The notes under the pieces were generated by a model. It ran no database searches. It saw only the letters and a program-made list of their open reading frames with translations, and was not told the DNA's origin. The position numbers were made by a program, and so were the translations under genes. Positions 280 to 56,626 of a stretch of 64,000 nt of DNA are shown one piece after another. Every line of letters begins with the position of its first letter. The first letter of the stretch is position 1. The DNA is from a virus: positions 32,001 through 96,000 of the IMG/VR virus record IMGVR_UViG_3300046457_000175. One strand, given 5' to 3'.

Positions 280-3707
<3,428 letters not shown>

Positions 3708-3995: not shown

Positions 3996-4337
3996 TTACC
4001 CGCCCCGCTTCTTGGATCGGTAGGGATAGGTCTTCGAGTACTCGACGCGCTGCTCGCGCTTCCTCGGGACGAACTTGATCGGATGCTTGGCCAGCTCCTT
4101 GAAGAGGGCTTCGATCTCGACCTTGTTGTTCTCGTCGCGGGGGTCGATCGCATTGAGCTTGCCAACGATGGTGTCGACGGCAGCCGCCTCGGCCTTGCGC
4201 AGGCAGCGACTGGTGTGGATAGCGTTGCCGATCGAGCTGTAGGTCCGCTTCCGCTTGACCTGACTGCCCTTCGACTGCTGCTGCACGAGCAAGCCGAACG
4301 CTCGCAAAATCCCGTCCTCGGTGCTTCTGACTTCCAT
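3996..4337 (-). CDS. hypothetical basic protein
   Basis: ATG at 4337 after GGAGAAGATAGGA, downstream of a TTGC box. Confidence 0.7.
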   Translation of the reverse strand: MEVRSTEDGILRAFGLLVQQQSKGSQVKRKRTYSSIGNAIHTSRCLRKAEAAAVDTIVGKLNAIDPRDENNKVEIEALFKELAKHPIKFVPRKREQRVEYSKTYPYRSKKRGG

Positions 4338-4372
4338 GGTCCTATCTTCTCCGGTTTGCATTCAAGCAAGCT

Positions 4373-7242: not shown

Positions 7243-7736
7243 GCTACCTCTTTGTTCTGCCGCTCGTCGTTGTCGTTGGCGGCGTCCTTGTAGTTGGACT
7301 GGGCCCGGGCTTCCTTGAGCAGCTCGTCGAGATCGAGCCCGGGGATGATGACCGACGCGACGATTTCCATCGCCCGATCGAAGTAGATCTTGAACTCCTC
7401 CTCCGGCATCGCGTCGAACGCGGTGGAGGAGGGGACGTAGATGAACTCGCCCTCGGTCGTGAGGATGGGCTCAGTCACGTTGCAGGCCAGCAGCAGCGTT
7501 TTGTGGAGCGCGTCCTCGGTCGAGAACTTGTCGGTGTTGTTGACGATGATCCGCAGCGTCACCCGATACAGGCGATGCCGCGGGCCGCTGCGTGGCTGGG
7601 CGAGCTGGATCCGGAGGGGGACGTTCTCCGGGTAGCGCTCGAACATCTCGACGTCGAACGGTGCGTGAGGGATCAGCGAGCCCTCGACCTTTCTGACGAG
7701 AATCCACTGGCTCTTGGACTTGTTGGTCTTGCTCAT
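7239..7736 (-). CDS. DUF1367/NinB-like recombination-associated protein
   Basis: PRSGPRHRLY...PSSTAFDAMPEEEF..YF pattern. Confidence 0.7.
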   Translation of the reverse strand: MSKTNKSKSQWILVRKVEGSLIPHAPFDVEMFERYPENVPLRIQLAQPRSGPRHRLYRVTLRIIVNNTDKFSTEDALHKTLLLACNVTEPILTTEGEFIYVPSSTAFDAMPEEEFKIYFDRAMEIVASVIIPGLDLDELLKEARAQSNYKDAANDNDERQNKEVA

Positions 7737-14738: not shown

Positions 14739-16292
14739 TTACGTGAAAGGCGCAACAAATAGTCCGGTCCGCTCGTCGAAGGACAGGATCGAGATGCCGG
14801 TGTTGCCGGCGAGCCGCTTGAGGCGGACCTTTGCGATGTTGATCTCGCGATCGTTGGGGCTGTCTTCATTGCCGCCGTGAACCAGAATGCCGAGGTCGGC
14901 CTTGTTCGCCCAGTGCGCGGAGTCCGAGATGTTGTAGAGCCCCGGCTTCTGCCCAGCATCCAGCTTCGTCGGGTGAGCCACCACGATGACGCAGACACCA
15001 AACTGCTTCGCGAACCGCTTGAGCATCTTGATCGCCTTTCCAACGTACTCCGTCAGCGACATGTTGGCCGGACGGTTGTGCTCCAGCTCGTTCCAGGGGT
15101 CGACGACCATGCACTTCACGCCATCGCGGAACACCGCGACCATTGCCGTGTCGATCAGGAACTTGACGTCGATCTCAAAGTCTTTGCCTTCATCGTAGTC
15201 GATGAACTGGAAGTATCTCTGGACGAACGCCTCGGCTTTCTTCTTCTCCTCGAACGTCCATGTCTTGCGCTCCTTTTCCAGGAAGGCGGTCATCAGCTCG
15301 TGTGCGAGGAACGGCTTGACGTCCTTCTCACCCGAGAAGATGGCGATCGGCCACTTGTGCTTCTTCGCCAGCAGCACTGCGACCTGGTTGATCAGCGTCG
15401 ACTTGCCGACGTTGGGCGTGCCGGTGCAGACCACGAACTGGCCGGGGTAGAACTTCATCAGGCCGTCCAGCTCCGCGGACAGACCGATCTCGCACATAGC
15501 CGGCACTTCCAGCTCCGGATAGTCGGAGAGGCGGAACAGACCCTTGACCGGCCATGGCTTGGCCGCCTGGATCATATCCGTCACCGCCTTGGCGCCGAGA
15601 TATTGCCTGACCTCGTTGAGATCCTTGGGGGCTCTGAGTTTGTTCCTGTTCTTCTTGTCCGGAACGACCTCGTCCGTGGGGTACTCGACCCAGAAACACT
15701 TGGCCGCACCGAGACGTCTGACCAACTCCTTGGCCAGGCGCTGGCCTGGCTCGTCAGCGTCGGTGCAGATGATGTGGTGCTTGACCTCCATGATCTGGTG
15801 CATCAGCCGGCCCATGAACGCGAACTTGTCGTCGTCCTCGGGGTCGATATCGCTGTCGTCGTCGGGCACATCGATCAGCCGACCCTTGGCGTCGCGGGCT
15901 GGCGGCGCACCATCGGGGACCGAGACGATGGTCTCGTAGCTGCACTCCTTGCCGGCGAGCACGTCGAACTCGCCCTCGACCCAGATCAGCGACTCATCGC
16001 CCTGGCGAAGTGCGTCCATCAGTGCCGGGTGGAATAGCACTTCCGCATTGTACAGCGTCTTGACCGCGTCCTTGCGCTGCATGAAGCGGCGCTGTCCGTC
16101 CTGCGACCACCGGTATTTGGTGTTCACCTCGACGCCATGCTCGAAGTAGGGGAAGCAGAGGATGTTGCCACGCTCGTCAGCTTCGATTGACCCATCGTGC
16201 GAGCGACGCCCGCTGTAGAGCCCCATAGCCGCCGCCGTTTCGACGCTCAGGCCGCGGTCCTCGATCCCCCGTGCGTGCTTCTCGTTTAGCAT
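14739..16292 (-). CDS. TOPRIM primase / SF4 helicase (T7 gp4/Twinkle-like) lacking the N-terminal Zn domain
   Basis: WVEGEFD, DADEPG TOPRIM motifs; TGTPNVGKS Walker A; VVDPWN; VAHPTK. Confidence 0.9.
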   Translation of the reverse strand: MLNEKHARGIEDRGLSVETAAAMGLYSGRRSHDGSIEADERGNILCFPYFEHGVEVNTKYRWSQDGQRRFMQRKDAVKTLYNAEVLFHPALMDALRQGDESLIWVEGEFDVLAGKECSYETIVSVPDGAPPARDAKGRLIDVPDDDSDIDPEDDDKFAFMGRLMHQIMEVKHHIICTDADEPGQRLAKELVRRLGAAKCFWVEYPTDEVVPDKKNRNKLRAPKDLNEVRQYLGAKAVTDMIQAAKPWPVKGLFRLSDYPELEVPAMCEIGLSAELDGLMKFYPGQFVVCTGTPNVGKSTLINQVAVLLAKKHKWPIAIFSGEKDVKPFLAHELMTAFLEKERKTWTFEEKKKAEAFVQRYFQFIDYDEGKDFEIDVKFLIDTAMVAVFRDGVKCMVVDPWNELEHNRPANMSLTEYVGKAIKMLKRFAKQFGVCVIVVAHPTKLDAGQKPGLYNISDSAHWANKADLGILVHGGNEDSPNDREINIAKVRLKRLAGNTGISILSFDERTGLFVAPFT

Positions 16293-16497
16293 TCTCTGAT
16301 CCAACCCATCCACAGTTCTTGCAATTCCAGACGACCCCGCTGACATCGATCTTCACCGATAGGCAGCGGATTTTCTTGTGAGCGCCCTTCCGCTTGTGCG
16401 AACACTGCGGACAGGTCGAATACTGATTTCCGAATTTGATGGACCGCAGCTTGATCCCCTCTTCGGACAGGACCTTCTCGATATCCACACTGGCCAT
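16177..16497 (-). CDS. stand-alone primase Zn-binding domain
   Basis: TCPQCSHKR...CLSVKI...WNCKNCGW; 3' part overlaps the primase start in another frame. Confidence 0.75.
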   Translation of the reverse strand: MASVDIEKVLSEEGIKLRSIKFGNQYSTCPQCSHKRKGAHKKIRCLSVKIDVSGVVWNCKNCGWVGSENAKREARTGDRGPRPERRNGGGYGALQRASLARWVNRS

Positions 16498-47200: not shown

Positions 47201-47296
47201 TGGCTGCACGAGTGGGCCTCGAACCCACCCCTTTAGTGAAATAATTTCACGTCCACCGGGTCTGCCGGTGCGCTCTACCAGCTGAGCTACCGTGCA
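47201..47296 (-). tRNA. atypical class-II-like tRNA (nominal anticodon AGA, Ser-like) or tRNA mimic
   Basis: acceptor TGCACGG/TCGTGCA + G + CCA; D arm GCTC-AGCTGGTA-GAGC; stem CACCG/CGGTG with loop GCAGACC; 25-nt variable region; T arm GTGGG-TTCGAGG-CCCAC. Confidence 0.75.
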
Positions 47297-49379: not shown

Positions 49380-50174
49380 TTACGCCGCCTCCGCCATTTC
49401 CTCCAGTTCCGCCGGGATCAGGGTGGCAGCTTCCGCCGTGGTTTCGCCGAATGCTTCATCGACGTCCGCCGCGACGCTTGCCCGCTCGAGTCGCACGCCT
49501 TCCAGCTTGGCGATCAAGAGAGTGAGTTCCGCATCGGTCAAGTCCATGGCCTTTTTGACCATGCCGTCAACCACGTCCGCCTTTTCCTTTTCGGTCGCGG
49601 GCTTGGAAAGCCGCTGTGTCAGCTTGGCGAACGAGTCGCCATAGGTGGCCTTCACAAATTCGCGGAAGTGTTCCGCTTGTGCCTGCCCGTCCGCGCCGCT
49701 GGCCTTCAATGCCAGAATGTCGCGGATTGCACCGGCATGATTGGTGCAGACGTCCGACATGAGGCGGAAGGACCATGTCCGGAGCTTGGCCAGCCCGTCG
49801 ACGAGTCGCGCCTTGTCGGGCTTGGCAAAGTCCGCGTTGGCAGTTTTGCCGCCGTCGACATAGTCCGAAATGGCCTTTTCGCGGTCCTTGCCCTTTTGCG
49901 CCATGCAGCGTCCAAGGATATCATCCGAGTCGCGCCACACAGTGTTGCCCTTGACGGCATACTTTTTCAGGAAGTGGCGGAAGGTGGCCTTATTCGCCTT
50001 TTCCGTAATTTCCTTGTCGGTTTCGGCGCGCTCGACTTGGCGGTTTGCCATGACGAGTCCAAGGGCAACGGTCGCGGTGAAAGCCGCGCTATCGTCCTCT
50101 TTAACCGCCTTGATCGCGGCGGAAAGGGCAATTTCGCCCAGTGTCTTTGCCGTGGTTGCAGTTGCGGTAGTCAT
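49380..50174 (-). CDS. Ala/Lys-rich hypothetical protein, first gene after the long non-coding region
   Basis: 264 aa, AAAGGAA RBS. Confidence 0.75.
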   Translation of the reverse strand: MTTATATTAKTLGEIALSAAIKAVKEDDSAAFTATVALGLVMANRQVERAETDKEITEKANKATFRHFLKKYAVKGNTVWRDSDDILGRCMAQKGKDREKAISDYVDGGKTANADFAKPDKARLVDGLAKLRTWSFRLMSDVCTNHAGAIRDILALKASGADGQAQAEHFREFVKATYGDSFAKLTQRLSKPATEKEKADVVDGMVKKAMDLTDAELTLLIAKLEGVRLERASVAADVDEAFGETTAEAATLIPAELEEMAEAA

Positions 50175-51067
50175 TTGGTCGGTTCCTTTTCAGTTTTCCG
50201 GAGGCCCGGAGGTTTTTGGAGATTTGAACACGGCTCTCCCGTGCTCTGGGAACACTTGGTTCCAGAGACTTCACGAGTCAGAAGACTCGCGCGTGAGAAG
50301 AGAGCAGTTCCAAAACCTCCGTTTGCATTTCCAGTACCCACAACATACTCAATACAAACATCGTTGGGTGAGAAATAAATTCATCAATGATTTCAATAAC
50401 TTACATACATCGAAAATCCGAAATCAAAATCGAGGCCTTGGAAATCGAGCACGAAAAACGCTGTGTTTTCAATGGCTTAGCAGGAATGCAAACGAGTCTG
50501 TCTTCGGCCTTCCCGAAATGATGCAGGAAAATCCGAAGTCTCCTAGCGAATCACCTTGTCAAGCCCTTGTTTCACTCTCTGTTCTCATCCTTTAGTCTAA
50601 GACAATCATTCATCAAGCGGAGAATTTTCTTCCTTTGTTTCCAAAAAAAGAGAATAATTTTTTATTGCATAGGCCCCCCATGTCGGCTGACCCCTCAAAA
50701 CTTCGAACCGCTAAAAGGGCCTTTTCCCAACGAGGGCAGGGACATGGGGCGAAACCCCTCGGCATCAGGGAGGCACAGGGGCTGTGTGCGTTAAAACGGG
50801 CGGCCCGTGCATCGGGAGCCTGGACTGGCAGGCCGCTCCTGGGGCTTCCCTGGCCGTTTGCATCGGGGAGGGCTGTCCGCAAAACGTATACAAACTCGGG
50901 ACAGGCCTGGCGTAAGAGATCCGGCGCAGATTTCTTACAGGGGGTGGCCTCGGAAATCGGGCGGCCCTGTTTTGGGGCCCCACCTGCGCGCCGCATAATG
51001 CAAAAGGGTAATTGCAGCGAGCGCTCCGCGCTGGTAGTGCAAACGCCAACCGTGCCGGGAGGGACAA

Positions 51068-51292
51068 TTGGACAAACGCTACATCGTGCTGGCCGCCGTG
51101 CTGGCGGCATTCGGGGCCACCTATCTGCTCTTCACGACGATGAACCCGCCCGACCTCGCCACACGAGCTGAGCAGGCCTGCCGCAAGGAGTACGGCAACA
51201 GCCCAGGCGTTGGATCATGCACGGTCGACCTCATCATGCGCGGGTCGAACGATCGAGAGCGGACCAACAACGCCTATCGGAACATGCGCTGA
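51068..51292 (+). CDS. membrane-anchored small protein
   Basis: TTG start, GGGAGG RBS, N-terminal TM, two Cys. Confidence 0.65.
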   Translation: MDKRYIVLAAVLAAFGATYLLFTTMNPPDLATRAEQACRKEYGNSPGVGSCTVDLIMRGSNDRERTNNAYRNMR

Positions 51293-51455
51293 CGGCGCCC
51301 GTGGGTAGCGAGGGCTCCGCCCTGATCTACAGACAGACCATGTGGCCCCTGGCGGCCCGCCCATGGATCAACCGGTCGCATACGACCACTTCAACGGAGC
51401 AGCAGGTCACATATGACCAGATGCCCGGGTCAGATGCAGGCGTGGGTAGCGAGCG

Positions 51456-51707
51456 CTACGCGCTGACCGGCACGACTATCCGGATCGGCATCGTCGCCGC
51501 GGCGATCGTCGCGAGCTGGCGGATGATGTGGCGGACCTCGTCGTGCATCGGGCGGACCGCCACGTTGAAGTCGCGCCAGATCCGGGCCGCCTCGTCCTGG
51601 TCACGGGACCGGTCCATGGCTCGGCGCATCTTGATCTCCTCGGCCGCGATCCGGGTGCGGAGGAGGTGGAGCAGCTCACGAGCTGCCGGTGGGGTCTCGA
51701 AAGTCAT
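51456..51707 (-). CDS. hypothetical protein
   Basis: GGAG in the hairpin motif serves as RBS. Confidence 0.6.
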   Translation of the reverse strand: MTFETPPAARELLHLLRTRIAAEEIKMRRAMDRSRDQDEAARIWRDFNVAVRPMHDEVRHIIRQLATIAAATMPIRIVVPVSA

Positions 51708-51732
51708 GGCCGGCGAGCGCTCCGCGCTAGAC

Positions 51733-52035
51733 TCATAGATTGCCACCGCAGTGTCGGCACTGGCGGTGCTCGACCGGCATGAAGGCGTCCTTGATCGGAT
51801 GATCCGGGTCCTCGTACAGACCGCCGCTGACGACGCTGATGTTGGTGTCGACGTCTGGGTGCCGCCAGTCCTTGCGGGCCGTGTGCGCGTAGCGGGCGCC
51901 CGGGAAGATGGGCTCTCCCTTCGGGGCCGGCTGCTCCGCGGTGCAGACCGGCTTCTTCGCTTCGATGTCGCGGAGGATCTGCTCGGCCGTGCTGCCGGCG
52001 ACGCCTCTGTTGCATAGCAGGACGTGTCGCTTCAT
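51733..52035 (-). CDS. hypothetical Cys-containing protein
   Basis: CRHC C-terminus, GAGGAG RBS. Confidence 0.6.
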   Translation of the reverse strand: MKRHVLLCNRGVAGSTAEQILRDIEAKKPVCTAEQPAPKGEPIFPGARYAHTARKDWRHPDVDTNISVVSGGLYEDPDHPIKDAFMPVEHRQCRHCGGNL

Positions 52036-52280
52036 TGGCCTTCTCCTCGGCTCGGGCGGCGCAGGCGGCCGGGCTCGTTGAGCCGCAGCTTCAGCACCAG
52101 CTCGCGCACGCGGTCTTCCTTCGCCACCCGTTCCTTGGCCGCCTGATGGCGCTCAGCCTGGCGCTCGCGGATCTTCCGCAGGGTTTCCTGCAGCTGGGCC
52201 GCCTCGGCCTCACTGACCTGGCGCGGGCCGCGGCTTTCCCACAGTGGTCCCTCGAAGGGGATATAGTCGTCATCGTCCAT
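52032..52280 (-). CDS. hypothetical protein
   Basis: coupled ORF. Confidence 0.55.
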   Translation of the reverse strand: MDDDDYIPFEGPLWESRGPRQVSEAEAAQLQETLRKIRERQAERHQAAKERVAKEDRVRELVLKLRLNEPGRLRRPSRGEGQ

Positions 52281-52397
52281 GGGTAGCGAGCGCTCCGCGC
52301 TAGAGAAGAACACACAGGACCGCGGCCACGATCCAGATCAAGCCGATCGGGTACACTGTCACCCGGATGGTGCGCGGGCCTACGCGCTTGACACTGA

Positions 52398-52670
52398 TCA
52401 CAGCCGCACCACGATCAGGTCGTCGACCGAGAAGCCGTCCGTCCAGCCGTGCCGATTGACGATCTCGTCGTCGCTGGCGATGCCGACGTTGATCTCGTGG
52501 CCGCTGCCGTCCTGGTATTCCCAGACCATGGACACGACGACGTACTCGGCGGGCCACTCCGCGGCATACTGGGCGGCCGGCGACACGGTCACGCGGCTGC
52601 CGACACGGATCGGGGCGACCTCGATCATCTGGCGCATCAGGATTTCGTGGCGGGGCAGGGCGGCGTTCAT
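52398..52670 (-). CDS. hypothetical protein
   Basis: GAGAG RBS. Confidence 0.6.
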   Translation of the reverse strand: MNAALPRHEILMRQMIEVAPIRVGSRVTVSPAAQYAAEWPAEYVVVSMVWEYQDGSGHEINVGIASDDEIVNRHGWTDGFSVDDLIVVRL

Positions 52671-52799
52671 CAGGTCACTCTCCGGAGAAATACCAGTCGG
52701 CCGCCTTGCGGAGGAGGCCAGTGTTGTTGGCGATGACGAGGCTGCCGATCAGCGCCAGCGCCACGACGATGCCGGTGAAGGCAGCGGTCCTGATCGCCA

Positions 52800-53120
52800 T
52801 CACGGCAGCTCCGTGGGCCGCTTGGTCAGCAGGCCTTGTCGGATCCGCCACCACAGGCCGGCCCCGCTCTCGCATTCCGAGACTGGCGGCACTGCATCGA
52901 GGCCGTGCTTGCGCTGAAGCAGCTTGCCGGTGTCGTGATCGCCGTCCCGCCAGGTGGCTCCCTGGCTCAGCCGGTGAAGCACGAAGGGCCGCGCCAGCTC
53001 GGGAGCATCCCTGAGGGCCGCCATGAGTCCGAACTGGAACTCGAGAGCGTCGACCAGCTCGCGGCGCAGCTCCGCGATCGAGAGCCGGTTGATGTAGGAC
53101 TCGTCGACGAGGTCGCTCAC
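52800..53120 (-). CDS. hypothetical protein
   Basis: GTGA coupling. Confidence 0.6.
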   Translation of the reverse strand: MSDLVDESYINRLSIAELRRELVDALEFQFGLMAALRDAPELARPFVLHRLSQGATWRDGDHDTGKLLQRKHGLDAVPPVSECESGAGLWWRIRQGLLTKRPTELP

Positions 53121-53467
53121 ATGTGGTCTCCCAGGTTACGCTTGAACTCGCGCAGGAAGGCGTTCGCCTCGTTGAGATCGGCCGGCAGGTCGGTCGCCCA
53201 CGACACCGAGACTCGAGCGATCGGCGTCGGGATCATGCGGAAGAGCCAGAGGAACTGGCGGCGGCTCTGGAACGGACGGAAGGTCCGGCCACGGATCTTG
53301 CGCTGCTCACCGGGGAGGGGATGTCGCCACTGGCGGCTGCTGAGTTGGGCGCCGAAGCCACCGATCCAGGTGTAGAGCCGGCCGCTCAGCCAGTAGAACC
53401 GGTCGTCGAAGTAGGGCGACGCGAGTCCGTGGCCGTTGCCGAAGATCAGATGGTCGAGGAAAAGCAT
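53117..53467 (-). CDS. hypothetical Trp/Arg-rich protein
   Basis: first ORF left of the box at 53478. Confidence 0.6.
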   Translation of the reverse strand: MLFLDHLIFGNGHGLASPYFDDRFYWLSGRLYTWIGGFGAQLSSRQWRHPLPGEQRKIRGRTFRPFQSRRQFLWLFRMIPTPIARVSVSWATDLPADLNEANAFLREFKRNLGDHM

Positions 53468-53560
53468 CCGGCTTGACTAGCACGAATGCAAATGCGATGC
53501 AAATATTCGCGGGGCCGGCGGGCGCTTCGCGCCAGAGTCATAACCAAACCGCCCGCGGCG

Positions 53561-53833
53561 TCACCCGTCGCGGAGGTTCATCGCTTTGTAGGCCTTGAGC
53601 AGCTGGTCCGGAGGCGTCCTGGCTTTCAGGGCTTCCCAGGCCGTCTTGAAGTCGACCTTCGCCTGGTCGAGGCTGCCGGCCGTGCCGATGGGGAGACCTC
53701 CGGTGAGGTGGACGATGACGTTCCAGATCCAGATCCCGGGCGTGCGCTCGCTAGCGTATCTGATCCGGCCGACCATCTGCTTGTCGTCGAGCACGGAATA
53801 GTCGCGGCGTCCGATCGGTCGCAGGCTGAGCAC
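53561..53833 (-). CDS. Bradyrhizobium-type small hypothetical protein
   Basis: GRIRYASERTPGIWIWNV...AKVDFKTAW, a pattern I associate with Bradyrhizobiaceae hypotheticals (recall, not searched). Confidence 0.65.
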   Translation of the reverse strand: MLSLRPIGRRDYSVLDDKQMVGRIRYASERTPGIWIWNVIVHLTGGLPIGTAGSLDQAKVDFKTAWEALKARTPPDQLLKAYKAMNLRDG

Positions 53834-53850
53834 GAAATCGGCCTCGTGAG

Positions 53851-53974
53851 GGGGGTGTCAACCAGGATGACAGGGGGGGTGTAATCCTGGTTGACAGGGG
53901 TGTCATCCGAGTTGACAGGGGTGTCATCCGAGTTGACACCTTAAACCACCACTATAACCACCACTTGAACCACC
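53851..53974. repeat. second iteron array homologous to the one in the initiator gene
   Basis: four GTGTCA-N7-TGACA(G/C) units at 53855, 53879, 53900, 53921 followed by CTTAAACCACCACTATAACCACCACTTGAACC. Confidence 0.85.
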
Positions 53975-54370
53975 AACTCTTAGACTCTCGTCCCTTTTCG
54001 GGCCGAGGCGCTGGCTTTTGGCTTCGGCCGCAGGTTCCGGTCAGGAACTCCAGCCGGCAAGTTTCCACAGTTCGGGCGGAAAAGGTGCCCAGGTGTTGAA
54101 ACCGGGAACCCATTTGCATTTTTGCAGGGAACAACCAGAGAGGGGTTGACAGAACGGGGGTACCTACTGTAGGACTTGCTGTAGCGTTAGCATTCGTGCA
54201 AACGTAACCAAGCCCCCAGGATGCGGCCCGGACAATCAGCCGGGACATTGGGCGGTGCCCGGACCCACTAACCCCATGCTGCGACCCCCGCCTCAGGCGG
54301 CGGCGCCCGGCCAGGCGATAGGAGTTCGGCGTGTCCAGGGGCTTGCTTGAATGCAAACGGAGGAACGCGC

Positions 54371-54496
54371 GTGAGCCATGAGCTGATCCAGTATCTCGCC
54401 TATGTGGCCGCGATCGTCCTGACCCCTGCAGTCGGCTTTGCCGTCCTCGGCCTGTTCTGGTGCGTCCGATCCCTGAAGGAGATCGTCTGGCCATGA
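54371..54496 (+). CDS. single-TM microprotein
   Basis: GGAGGA RBS after the box at 54343; hydrophobic core. Confidence 0.6.
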   Translation: MSHELIQYLAYVAAIVLTPAVGFAVLGLFWCVRSLKEIVWP

Positions 54497-54627
54497 CTGC
54501 TGACATCGAATTTCTCGCCGTGCTCAGCAGAGCCATCCTCGCATTGATGATCCTGAGCGGCGGCGCCATCGCAACGATCCTGGTCGTGATCCTCATCCTG
54601 AAGCTCTTTGGGTGCCTCGATGACTGA
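54493..54627 (+). CDS. single-TM microprotein
   Basis: AAGGAG RBS, ATGA coupling. Confidence 0.55.
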   Translation: MTADIEFLAVLSRAILALMILSGGAIATILVVILILKLFGCLDD

Positions 54628-54904
54628 CCGCGCAGACGAAATCATCGCTGCCGCCGAGCAGGCGCTGCGTGAGCGACGCGGGCGCTCCGCGCCAGAGACA
54701 AACCAAACAGCTCCCGACTGGGGCCCGCTGTACCGCTACCTGCAAGGTGTGGTGCTCGGCTGCGTCGCCGGCCTGATCATCGGCTACATCTGCGGCGCCT
54801 TCATCGGACCGGGTCGTGACACCTGCAAGGTGCGCGCCTCCACGGCTCGCATGGCGGTCTGTCTCGATGACTCGATCGCAAAAGCCAAGGGGCTGATGCG
54901 GTGA
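54620..54904 (+). CDS. membrane protein
   Basis: TM VVLGCVAGLIIGYICGAFI. Confidence 0.65.
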   Translation: MTDRADEIIAAAEQALRERRGRSAPETNQTAPDWGPLYRYLQGVVLGCVAGLIIGYICGAFIGPGRDTCKVRASTARMAVCLDDSIAKAKGLMR

Positions 54905-55239
54905 GCGAGAACCCTGGGAAGTGGCGAGACATCGAACAGCACGCTGACAGCATGACGCTCTTCGGCCGCGACTTCACGCTGCTGGTCGACGGCAAGCCGC
55001 TCGACAGCATCCCGACGAAGCTCTTCGTCAACGAGATCGACGTCGTGACCGGCGCGATCACTGAGGTCACCTACACGACCCAGCTCGCGATCGACGAGCC
55101 GATCGAGCCGCTCAGCGAGACAGAGCAGAAGCTCTGCGATTGGTGGGCCAAGCGGATCGAGGAAGATCTGCTCCGCCAGCTCTGCGGCGCGTCCAGTGAA
55201 TACGAACAAAGCCTGCGTGCGGCAGGCGCCAAAGTTTAA
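54901..55239 (+). CDS. hypothetical protein
   Basis: GTGA coupling. Confidence 0.65.
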   Translation: MSENPGKWRDIEQHADSMTLFGRDFTLLVDGKPLDSIPTKLFVNEIDVVTGAITEVTYTTQLAIDEPIEPLSETEQKLCDWWAKRIEEDLLRQLCGASSEYEQSLRAAGAKV

Positions 55240-55291
55240 CCAGAGCCCGTGGTCTGCCCCAGGCAGCACGGCTCACCCTTTCGAGGCCGGA

Positions 55292-55603
55292 ATGTCCAAG
55301 ATCGTGCCCGACCAGCTCGTTGACCTCGCGCTCGAACATCTCGACGACGAAGTCAAGCGCTGGCGGCGCGTGCCTTGGGCTCCGGGATACATCCGCCTGA
55401 TGCGGTGCCCCGACATGCCGGGCCCGGCAGAGATCACCGCTCAAGCGATGGAACAGGAGATCGTCTGCCACGACGTGCCGGCCGCTCTCGCCGACGACAT
55501 GATCGTCCGCTTCGCGATGGAGAAGGCCATTGAGGCCGTCATCGGTGCCATCTCGCTCGCAGTGCCGGCGCCGAAGCCGCGCAAGCGAAAGGCCAAGTCG
55601 TGA
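55292..55603 (+). CDS. hypothetical protein
   Basis: GAGG RBS, coupled to the next ORF. Confidence 0.55.
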   Translation: MSKIVPDQLVDLALEHLDDEVKRWRRVPWAPGYIRLMRCPDMPGPAEITAQAMEQEIVCHDVPAALADDMIVRFAMEKAIEAVIGAISLAVPAPKPRKRKAKS

Positions 55604-56550: not shown

Positions 56551-56626
56551 GCTGGGGTAGCTCAGATGGTAGAGCGCCGGATTTCCAATCCGTTGGTCGT
56601 GGGTTCGAACCCCACCCCTCGCTCCA
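56551..56626 (+). tRNA. tRNA-Gly (anticodon TCC)
   Basis: 76 nt cloverleaf, loop TT-TCC-AA, GGTTCGAA T loop, U73, encoded CCA. Confidence 0.92.

Follow-up and report, generated by a model that had tools for sequence, protein, structure and literature searches.

The DNA analysed here is a window of 64,000 nucleotides (nt), bases 32001–96000 of a single viral contig of 119,289 bp with 61% G+C (IMG/VR record IMGVR_UViG_3300046457_000175; genome code G000), and our subject is a 13-nt mini-hairpin with a G-N-A triloop that occurs seven times, always on the − strand, among small genes of its early region. The sole relative of this genome in our phage collection is Bradyrhizobium phage BDU-MI-1, a 121-kb phage of B. 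diazoefficiens USDA110 with a circular GenBank record, which has a contractile tail, rIIA, a class II ribonucleotide reductase, a primase-helicase and an integrase (the last about 60 kb away from the hairpin region). The window likewise encodes a Toprim-DnaB protein (14739–16346). The hairpin region itself consists of small genes of unknown function placed around a point of divergence, with leftward genes to the left of ~53,850 and rightward genes to the right of ~54,350. Between the two sets lie four GTGTCA-N7-TGACAC units (53855–53974, an iteron or operator array homologous in BDU-MI-1 and in the IMG/VR relative G001), together with promoter-like sites, and BDU-MI-1 has the same layout. Ten neighbouring small open reading frames (ORFs) gave no Pfam match and only marginal matches to PHROGs of unknown function, and no arginine-rich, N-like peptide was obvious among the local ORFs.

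Read in the sense of the leftward genes, the conserved unit spans ~24–33 nt and is composed of the stop codon or codons of the upstream gene, the hairpin AGCGC-GNA-GCGCT, the octamer CGCYRCCC and then, often, an ATG. Two of the seven copies, all on the − strand, are full units. In copy 5 (52278–52301, hairpin AGCGC-GGA-GCGCT at 52289–52301) the small ORF before it ends in a TAG that includes the first base of the stem, and the spacer (52281–52288) is followed by the ATG of gene A at 52278–52280. Gene A (52032–52280, 82 amino acids (aa), N-terminus MDDDDYIPFEG) thus starts at the ATG found 8 nt past the hairpin (+8), with no Shine-Dalgarno sequence in the spacer. Gene B (51733–52035, 100 aa, with a C-terminal CxxC) has its own GAGGAGAAGG ribosome site, and its TGA lies 4 nt before the stem of the second full unit, copy 4 (51705–51728, hairpin AGCGC-GGA-GCGCT at 51716–51728), where the spacer CGCCGGCC leads to the ATG (51705–51707) of gene C. 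This last gene (51456–51707, 83 aa) is a cassette bounded by copies 4 and 3, its stop codon being formed by the TA of the loop and the first G of the 3’ arm of copy 3 (51441–51464, hairpin AGCGC-GTA-GCGCT at 51452–51464). There the spacer CGCTACCC leads to ACG instead of ATG, and an ACG also follows the spacer of copy 2 (51300–51323, hairpin AGGGC-GGA-GCCCT at 51311–51323), a compensatory variant of the stem. Copy 2 sits 19 nt past the stop of an ORF on the opposite strand (51068–51292, +; 74 aa, hydrophobic N-terminus, two cysteines, GGGAGGG ribosome site and TTG start) that lies between the hairpins at 51311 and 51020; this ORF has no family match and, within a leftward array, looks like a moron. 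Copy 1 (51009–51032, hairpin AGCGC-GGA-GCGCT at 51020–51032) is the last of the array. The two remaining copies form class II, with GGCGC stems and a common T-rich extension on the 5’ side, and they flank the iteron/operator array: copy 6 (53510–53548, hairpin GGCGC-GAA-GCGCC at 53521–53533) stands between the first leftward gene and a promoter-like site, while copy 7 (54670–54708, hairpin GGCGC-GGA-GCGCC at 54681–54693) is antisense within a rightward gene (54620–54904).

An earlier note, made from this DNA alone, had proposed seven hairpins, and all of them are present at the positions it gave, with the stems and loops it described; the + strand reads stem-TNC-stem, so the G-N-A loop belongs to the − strand. 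The clustering it reported holds against both shuffled sequence and the rest of the genome: a pattern spanning all the variants matched seven times in the window where 0.42 matches were expected, with at most two in any of 100 shuffles, and the whole genome holds no eighth copy, whether exact or with up to three mismatches in 16 nt. The partly conserved flanks that it mentioned are also there (GCG 5’ on the + strand in 7/7 copies, AGA 3’ in 4/7), and the true conserved flank is longer, namely the CGCYRCCC found 3’ of the hairpin in gene sense. Relatives carry the motif with its stem pairing intact, with seven copies in BDU-MI-1, six in G001 and seven in a second IMG/VR relative, G002. Within the homologous early region of these four genomes the copies are clustered and all 27 lie on the same strand, and a reversed control pattern gave no matches. 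Further members came from four more viral contigs and from two Bradyrhizobium genomes (loci L184 and L206), and at least five related Bradyrhizobium phages or prophages, BDU-MI-1 among them, bear five to seven co-oriented copies in the same early region. The motif is limited to one region of 3.7–6 kb per genome and is not dispersed. When genome contigs were scanned with a 20-nt pattern, the matches were mostly single chance occurrences in G+C-rich bacteria, and only L184 and L206 looked like members of the family.

A second family returned by the scan of viral contigs was set aside as an ordinary terminator unrelated to the motif studied here. It occurs in about ten unrelated IMG/VR contigs (L012, L020, L024, L026, L029, L069, L075, L083, L085, L086, L113) as an AGCGC-GAA-GCGCT stem extended by 2 bp and followed by CAAA and seven or eight T, next to a gene start. 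Two other viral contigs (L017 at ~3440–3520 and L063 at ~720–1830) contain tandem G-A-A triloop hairpins with ACGCC, ACGGC and AGGGC stems, each preceded by GCT(A/C)GG and followed by CGCTAC or CGCTGC; judging by sequence, the motif class may extend to these contigs as a more remote branch.

To define the element we aligned 42 copies, 40 of them distinct. Nearly every stem cell (199/200) is Watson-Crick paired, with no wobble pairs and a single broken stem in the entire set. Two of the five stem pairs have changed on both sides (A-T to G-C and C-G to G-C) and none on one side only, and the covariation score of the alignment was reached by none of 500 shuffles. The search pattern had allowed arms that do not complement each other, and such arms were absent from the phages and frequent in host genomes. 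The proposal that structure rather than plain sequence is conserved is therefore borne out by double compensatory changes. The loop is equally constrained, with G at its first position in 41/42 copies and A at its third in 42/42, on one strand only, and CGC follows the hairpin on its 3’ side in all 42. A G-N-A loop confined to one strand is what a sheared G.A pair in a folded single strand, as opposed to a symmetric protein site, would produce, and a hairpin in single-stranded nucleic acid is, on the strength of the alignment, a well-supported conclusion. Folding calculations add little. When folded as RNA and DNA, 21-mers taken by themselves adopt the hairpin (about −5 kcal/mol) with insignificant z-scores, and these energies are uninformative because the models carry no bonus for G-N-A loops.

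The same alignment bears on the idea of a double-stranded operator, at which a dimeric phage regulator would bind the AGCGC-N3-GCGCT duplex and repress or activate each cassette. A perfect 5+5 palindrome, repeated within one regulatory region beside an immunity- or origin-like array, is what such a regulator might be expected to use. However, a symmetric dimer site predicts neither a centre that is G-N-A on one strand only in 42 copies nor a single conserved flank, and the half-site changes always affect both arms together, as base pairing demands but the binding of a dimer would not. We regard this explanation as highly unlikely.

The element is also in register with the genes around it. The ~9 A+T-rich bases that precede the stem correspond to stop codons of the upstream gene, which lie 0–10 nt before the hairpin or within it, in some cases overlapping the first stem base or falling inside the loop. 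Downstream, an ATG is found exactly 8 nt past the hairpin in 12 of the 42 aligned copies and at +9 in a thirteenth (L124), and none of these ATG-linked copies has a Shine-Dalgarno sequence in its spacer. The N-termini of gene A align at the +8 ATG in three phages, GenBank starts the BDU-MI-1 homologue there, and in G001 a 142-aa ORF extends precisely from the +8 ATG of one hairpin to a stop just before the next. The suggestion that two copies supply, through the GGAG of the loop, the ribosome-binding site of the following gene stands only in part: the copies at 52289 and 51716 do precede a genuine ATG 8 nt past the stem, but the distance from GGAG to ATG is 12 nt, longer than normal Shine-Dalgarno spacing. 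By our own count, GGA occupies the loop in 10/13 ATG-linked copies versus 15/29 of the others, which is no significant association, and the loop GGA was consequently rejected as a Shine-Dalgarno sequence.

Other structured elements were seen next to some hairpins. A perfect canonical tRNA T-arm (5-bp stem, TTCGAAC loop) lies on the gene-sense strand of G002 (L121 ~1085–1112), 11 nt downstream of one hairpin, without being part of a tRNA detectable by ARAGORN, and a weaker counterpart is present at ~51420–51440 of the window. ARAGORN and Rfam (E up to 1) gave no match at the hairpins themselves, their only hits being a tRNA-Gly at 56551 and a tRNA-Ser-like gene at 47201. In a widely shared cassette (L121 ~620–664, L126 ~835–878, L127 ~690–732, L115 ~4314–4360 and L206) a structured leader is conserved: the mini-hairpin is followed by a second, 6-bp triloop hairpin, by a TAnnAT hexamer that resembles a −10 box 21–24 nt from the first hairpin, and by a third hairpin that sequesters GAGGG directly before the ATG.

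Comparison of related phages revealed that homology breaks at the hairpins, which bears out the role as gene-shuffling sites that the earlier note had proposed. For 5.7 kb up to the hairpin at 52289 the sequences of G000 and G002 agree at 99.5% of positions, and directly past its ATG all similarity is lost; identity of ~93% resumes to the left of the last hairpin, and the cassettes in between differ or are reordered. The class I hairpin before gene A is the first in G000 and the second in G002, while gene B, which has its own ribosome site in G000, begins at the +8 ATG of a hairpin in G002. Copies have been gained and lost junction by junction among close relatives. Across nine genomes or contigs, pairs of hairpins from different genomes that share a homologous flank (87–90 nt; the pairs are not independent events) do so upstream only in 19 cases, downstream only in another 19 and on both sides in three, two of which are from the near-identical G000 and G002. 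Even so, the imbalance is clear enough for the flanks to be taken as assorting independently around the hairpin: related phages have swapped genes, inserted them or changed their order, and the break points lie inside the element. These points fall at the first stem base, that is, at the 5’ edge, or 10–24 nt into the motif, and such a spread fits recombination on the shared 24–30 bp, not cleavage at one bond.

The register with stops and starts, the placement in one operon and the sense orientation point to a role in expression of the leftward early message. We tentatively favour the view that the element is a start-associated intercistronic linker of early-gene cassettes that doubles as a short-homology crossover point, an assignment that seems plausible, if somewhat short of probable. 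According to this model, the element would be transcribed within the leftward early message, where the module of stop, hairpin, 8 nt and AUG would end translation of the upstream gene, and the next cassette would be translated without a Shine-Dalgarno sequence of its own, either by re-initiation or with the help of a start-associated factor; the hairpin may additionally cap or protect processed ends of the message. Recombination between copies would shuffle the cassettes and leave them expressed, because each bears the same 24–30 bp.

Several observations count against the linker model. An ATG stands at +8 in only about one third of the copies and an ACG in about as many, and the GGAG, which in any case lies 12 nt away from the ATG, does not occur where the loop is GTA or GAA. 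In RNA contexts of 71–86 nt other pairings win, so that the mini-hairpin is not the minimum-energy structure, and none of the 71-nt folds beats its shuffles. The loop itself, a strict C-GNA-G, obeys the rule for hyperstable DNA mini-hairpins (PMC13037366) and is of that type, not a classic RNA loop. Pfam searches of the genome for RNA_pol, Sigma70_r2 and Y1_Tnp, and for the recombinase families RecT, ERF and RecA, were all negative. Most awkward is copy 7, which, like its counterparts in BDU-MI-1 and G002, is antisense inside a rightward gene, and which forms an island of 21 nt identical to BDU-MI-1, third codon positions included, in a gene that is only 40% identical at the protein level. An RNA element of the leftward message leaves this copy unexplained unless a leftward transcript crosses it.

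Copy 7, the DNA-type C-GNA-G loop, the lack of wobble pairs and the proximity of the iterons keep alive a second reading, in which the G-N-A hairpin acts at the DNA level: it would fold on the − strand, when this is single-stranded or extruded, and be recognised by a protein of replication or recombination. Possible roles are a lagging-strand priming or loading signal for a fork that leaves the iteron array leftward, or a structure-specific recombination site at which cassettes would be exchanged actively, much as at the attC sites of integrons. The orientation of the copies, uniform in all 27 even where the local gene runs the other way, agrees with this, as does the absence of G.T pairs from the 200 stem cells. 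The C-GNA-G core with its sheared G.A pair is known at the G4 and ssiA priming sites and at the promoters of phage N4 (PMC4496689, PMC13037366), and these DNA mini-hairpins are the closest in structure to ours; the conserved flank, too, is 3’ of the hairpin, as at priming sites of the G4/ssiA type. Furthermore, the hairpin array begins 60–360 nt from the iteron array in G000, BDU-MI-1 and G001, and break points between phages coincide with the hairpin. However, a DNA signal gives no reason for the fixed distance of 8 nt to the ATG or for stops just upstream, crossovers spread over the motif fit ordinary short-homology recombination, six or seven priming signals within 3.7 kb would be unusual, and neither a Y1/HUH transposase nor RecT, ERF or RecA was found in the phage. 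We consider this reading possible, though on the unlikely side.

The gain and loss of copies at individual junctions would also be expected of a selfish or neutral repeat, a palindrome resembling repetitive extragenic palindromes (REPs) or miniature inverted-repeat transposable elements, which would have spread or been homogenised by gene conversion and be tolerated at junctions with no function. Gene conversion could account for the identity island of copy 7, and the + strand of about half of the copies has, 2 nt away from the stem, a GTAG tetranucleotide that recalls the GTAG-tagged REPs of Bradyrhizobium hosts (PMC3733652), which share with the element a short G+C palindrome, strand specificity and a position at gene 3’ ends. 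The element is, however, much shorter, confined to one phage region and set in register with stop and start codons, which is strict, and it is neither abundant nor clustered in hosts. Membership in a host REP family was rejected on this ground: four host-type genomes (Bradyrhizobium/Afipia) gave ~20 loose matches per 4–10 Mb, roughly 2 per Mb, against ~13 for the control, unclustered and mostly with arms that do not pair. Neither a REP-associated tyrosine transposase nor a Y1 transposase of the IS200/IS605 type is found in the phage (PF01797 was absent from G000, with the control positive in 7/14 genomes), and a freely drifting repeat sits uneasily with one region of 3.7–6 kb in every genome and a single broken stem in 42 copies. 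A functionless repeat is, in our judgement, improbable.

The likeness to N4 raises the question of promoters. The N4 virion RNA polymerase reads a hairpin with a stem of 5–7 bp and a G-N-A loop that forms on the template strand; relative to the start at a template C (+1), the centre of its loop is at −11 (PMC4496689). The elements studied here resemble it in the 5-bp stem, the C:G closing pair, the 3-nt loop with 5’ G and 3’ A (in all seven copies of the window), the G at the equivalent of −8 and a purine 11 nt from the loop centre. Unlike in N4, where transcription leaves from the 5’ side of the hairpin, the conserved flank is on the 3’ side, and the position 5 nt 5’ of the stem, which would correspond to the N4 start, is mostly T or A. 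The phage also differs, having a myovirus-type genome of 119 kb and not that of a schitovirus. The proposal that these are promoters of the N4 type has to be abandoned, since six of the seven copies have their purine loop on the strand that codes for the neighbouring genes, and since a virion polymerase was not found: the largest ORFs of the window are the ribonucleotide reductase (1143 aa) and a protein matching tail-protein PHROGs (1059 aa), and the other large ORFs are helicases.

A related and broader idea is that the hairpin is a promoter for some unrecognised polymerase or factor, and that transcription starts 11 nt beyond the loop centre on its 3’ side, at the conserved purine, to give near-leaderless messages that begin RCCC-AUG. 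It would explain why a 13-nt hairpin and an invariably purine position reproduce the N4 spacing, why ~24 nt of contiguous conservation end at the gene start, as in promoters of single-subunit polymerases, and why the spacer has no Shine-Dalgarno sequence. Another gene of the operon (53117–53467, −, 116 aa) also has none and is predicted from its sequence to be leaderless, with its ATG at 53467. Against it, the purine loop is on the non-template strand here but on the template strand in N4, a gene start is missing after many copies, and no polymerase of the T7/N4 kind or sigma domain was detected. The search of the phage with PF00940, an RNA polymerase family, was negative while its positive control was silent, which makes this a weak result; the BDU-MI-1 annotation lists no RNA polymerase. 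There is no conserved −35/−10 within the motif or in the 70 nt upstream, and a sigma-70 consensus scan returned no sites in 50000–55500; the A+T-rich 9 nt before the stem are not a −10 box, as they are explained by the upstream stop codons. We find a hairpin promoter quite improbable. Extracytoplasmic-function and sigma-54-type promoter patterns, checked by eye, did not fit. Nor is the element an intrinsic terminator: what follows the stem is CGCYRCCC in gene sense and an A-rich run on the opposite strand, and none of five terminator-like matches is a hairpin copy.

Left of copy 1 there follow ~640 bp without a convincing ORF (non-coding stretch 50380–51008), made up of a 300-bp A+T-rich part (50380–50680) and a G+C-rich part with a AAAAGGCC-type repeat. 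It may mark a terminus or the border of a prophage, serve as an origin-like unwinding region, or reflect no more than the breaking of assemblies at a hypervariable region. If it marked a physical genome end, the array beside it might serve in end protection, the hairpins slowing exonucleases or acting like Chi on the strand that ends 3’ there. In agreement with this, the A+T-rich part is 0.3 kb left of the last hairpin, three relatives (G002 and those of L126 and L127) have contigs that start within the homologous stretch or next to it, and the hairpins run 5’ to 3’ on the strand ending 3’ at that side, the orientation that a Chi-like signal needs. However, the sequence is unbroken through this point in G000 and L115, the BDU-MI-1 record is circular, and the contig breaks may merely reflect the hypervariable array; Chi-type recognition, moreover, needs no compensatory stem changes and leaves the ATG register unexplained. 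Of all the explanations, this one strikes us as barely credible. The stretch also contains a quasi-palindromic box, AAAAGGCC(A/C)TTT, which occurs twice per genome in the non-coding region past the last hairpin (window ~50712–50727; L126 ~85–100 and ~300–315; L127 ~165–180 and ~430–445; L121 ~30–45 and ~285–300) and is found 35–45 nt past the last hairpin of G001 and L127.

Among known phage systems, the promoter-early stem-loop (PeSL) cassettes of T4-type phages, which combine a sigma-70 promoter with a terminator stem-loop, flank ORFans at places where close relatives differ by insertion, deletion or replacement (PMC2839356, PMC4122927). These are the closest in evolutionary behaviour: both are short, conserved, intergenic G+C stem-loops that flank small ORFans in hyperplastic early regions, with crossovers between relatives inside the motif. 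Unlike a PeSL, the element is a 13-nt G-N-A mini-hairpin 8 nt before an ATG, with no −35/−10 and no U-tract after the stem, and it belongs to a phage unrelated to T4 that has an alphaproteobacterial host. In placement, the closest system appears to be the start-associated sequences (SAS) and extended SAS (ESAS) of Cluster K mycobacteriophages (PMC3203893): a 13-nt asymmetric motif with symmetric outer bases and an internal GGAG that precedes mostly ATG starts. The two have in common the 13-nt asymmetric motif with internal GGAG a few nt upstream of starts, the occasional overlap with the upstream stop, a location in the non-structural half of the genome, one orientation except for a single odd copy per genome, absence from the host and association with unrelated gene families. 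Orientation, phage specificity and region agree with the SAS; placement at the start does so less well, with an ATG at +8 or +9 in only 13/42 copies. The AGGAG of the SAS is at the normal Shine-Dalgarno distance of 3–7 nt and only its 3-bp ends are symmetric, whereas our element has a compensated 5-bp stem, a triloop, a GGAG 12 nt from the ATG and a start after only a third of its copies; a role at mosaic junctions is not mentioned in the passages on SAS that were consulted. Since the element lacks some defining feature of every system compared, we have filed it with phage junction motifs of the PeSL/SAS kind.

Integrons offer a further comparison. Their attC sites are imperfect palindromes of 57–141 nt with defined R and L core sites, cut by the adjacent integron integrase. 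As in attC arrays, small and mostly promoterless genes in the same orientation are each bounded by a strand-specific, foldable exchange site. Unlike them, the site measures 13–24 nt, crossovers do not occur at one bond, no dedicated recombinase was identified, and the neighbouring ORFs have no family matches. It is conceivable, although we think it doubtful, that the mini-hairpin is the recognition site of an unrecognised structure-specific system for cassette exchange or expression, an attC-like site or ‘start/stop adaptor’ read by a dedicated phage or host factor.

Two putative promoters complete the picture of the early region. One (TTGCAT-N16-CTAGTC, 53475–53502, −) lies just downstream of copy 6 and ends 7 nt before the ATG at 53467; the other (TTGACA-N17/18-TAGGAC, 54146–54175, +) would head the rightward early genes. 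The −10-like TAG..C of the site at 53467–53502 resembles the TAGGAC of the rightward site at 54170. A conserved box, T(T/A)GCATTCGTGC, occurs at 53484–53495 (−) and 54187–54199 (+), as well as in G001 (L122 ~7595–7610). The leaders of the leftward and rightward early units thus share it, and in each of them it points along the direction of transcription.

Early regions are where phages gain and lose most of their genes of unknown function, including those for host takeover and anti-defence. How such genes can be swapped while their expression is kept is known in detail only for the PeSLs of T4-type phages, and the phages described here display the same evolutionary behaviour on a smaller and different device: a G-N-A hairpin of 13 nt with a compensated stem, which keeps a fixed register with the stop and start codons around it. 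They form a temperate-looking group of rhizobiophages whose type member, BDU-MI-1, can be cultivated on B. diazoefficiens USDA110, so that questions of mechanism are directly testable: whether the hairpin operates as RNA or as folded DNA in vivo, whether it permits restart independently of a Shine-Dalgarno sequence, and whether it recombines above the level expected for 24 bp of homology. For annotators of these phages, the hairpin is a practical marker of true gene starts and cassette borders.

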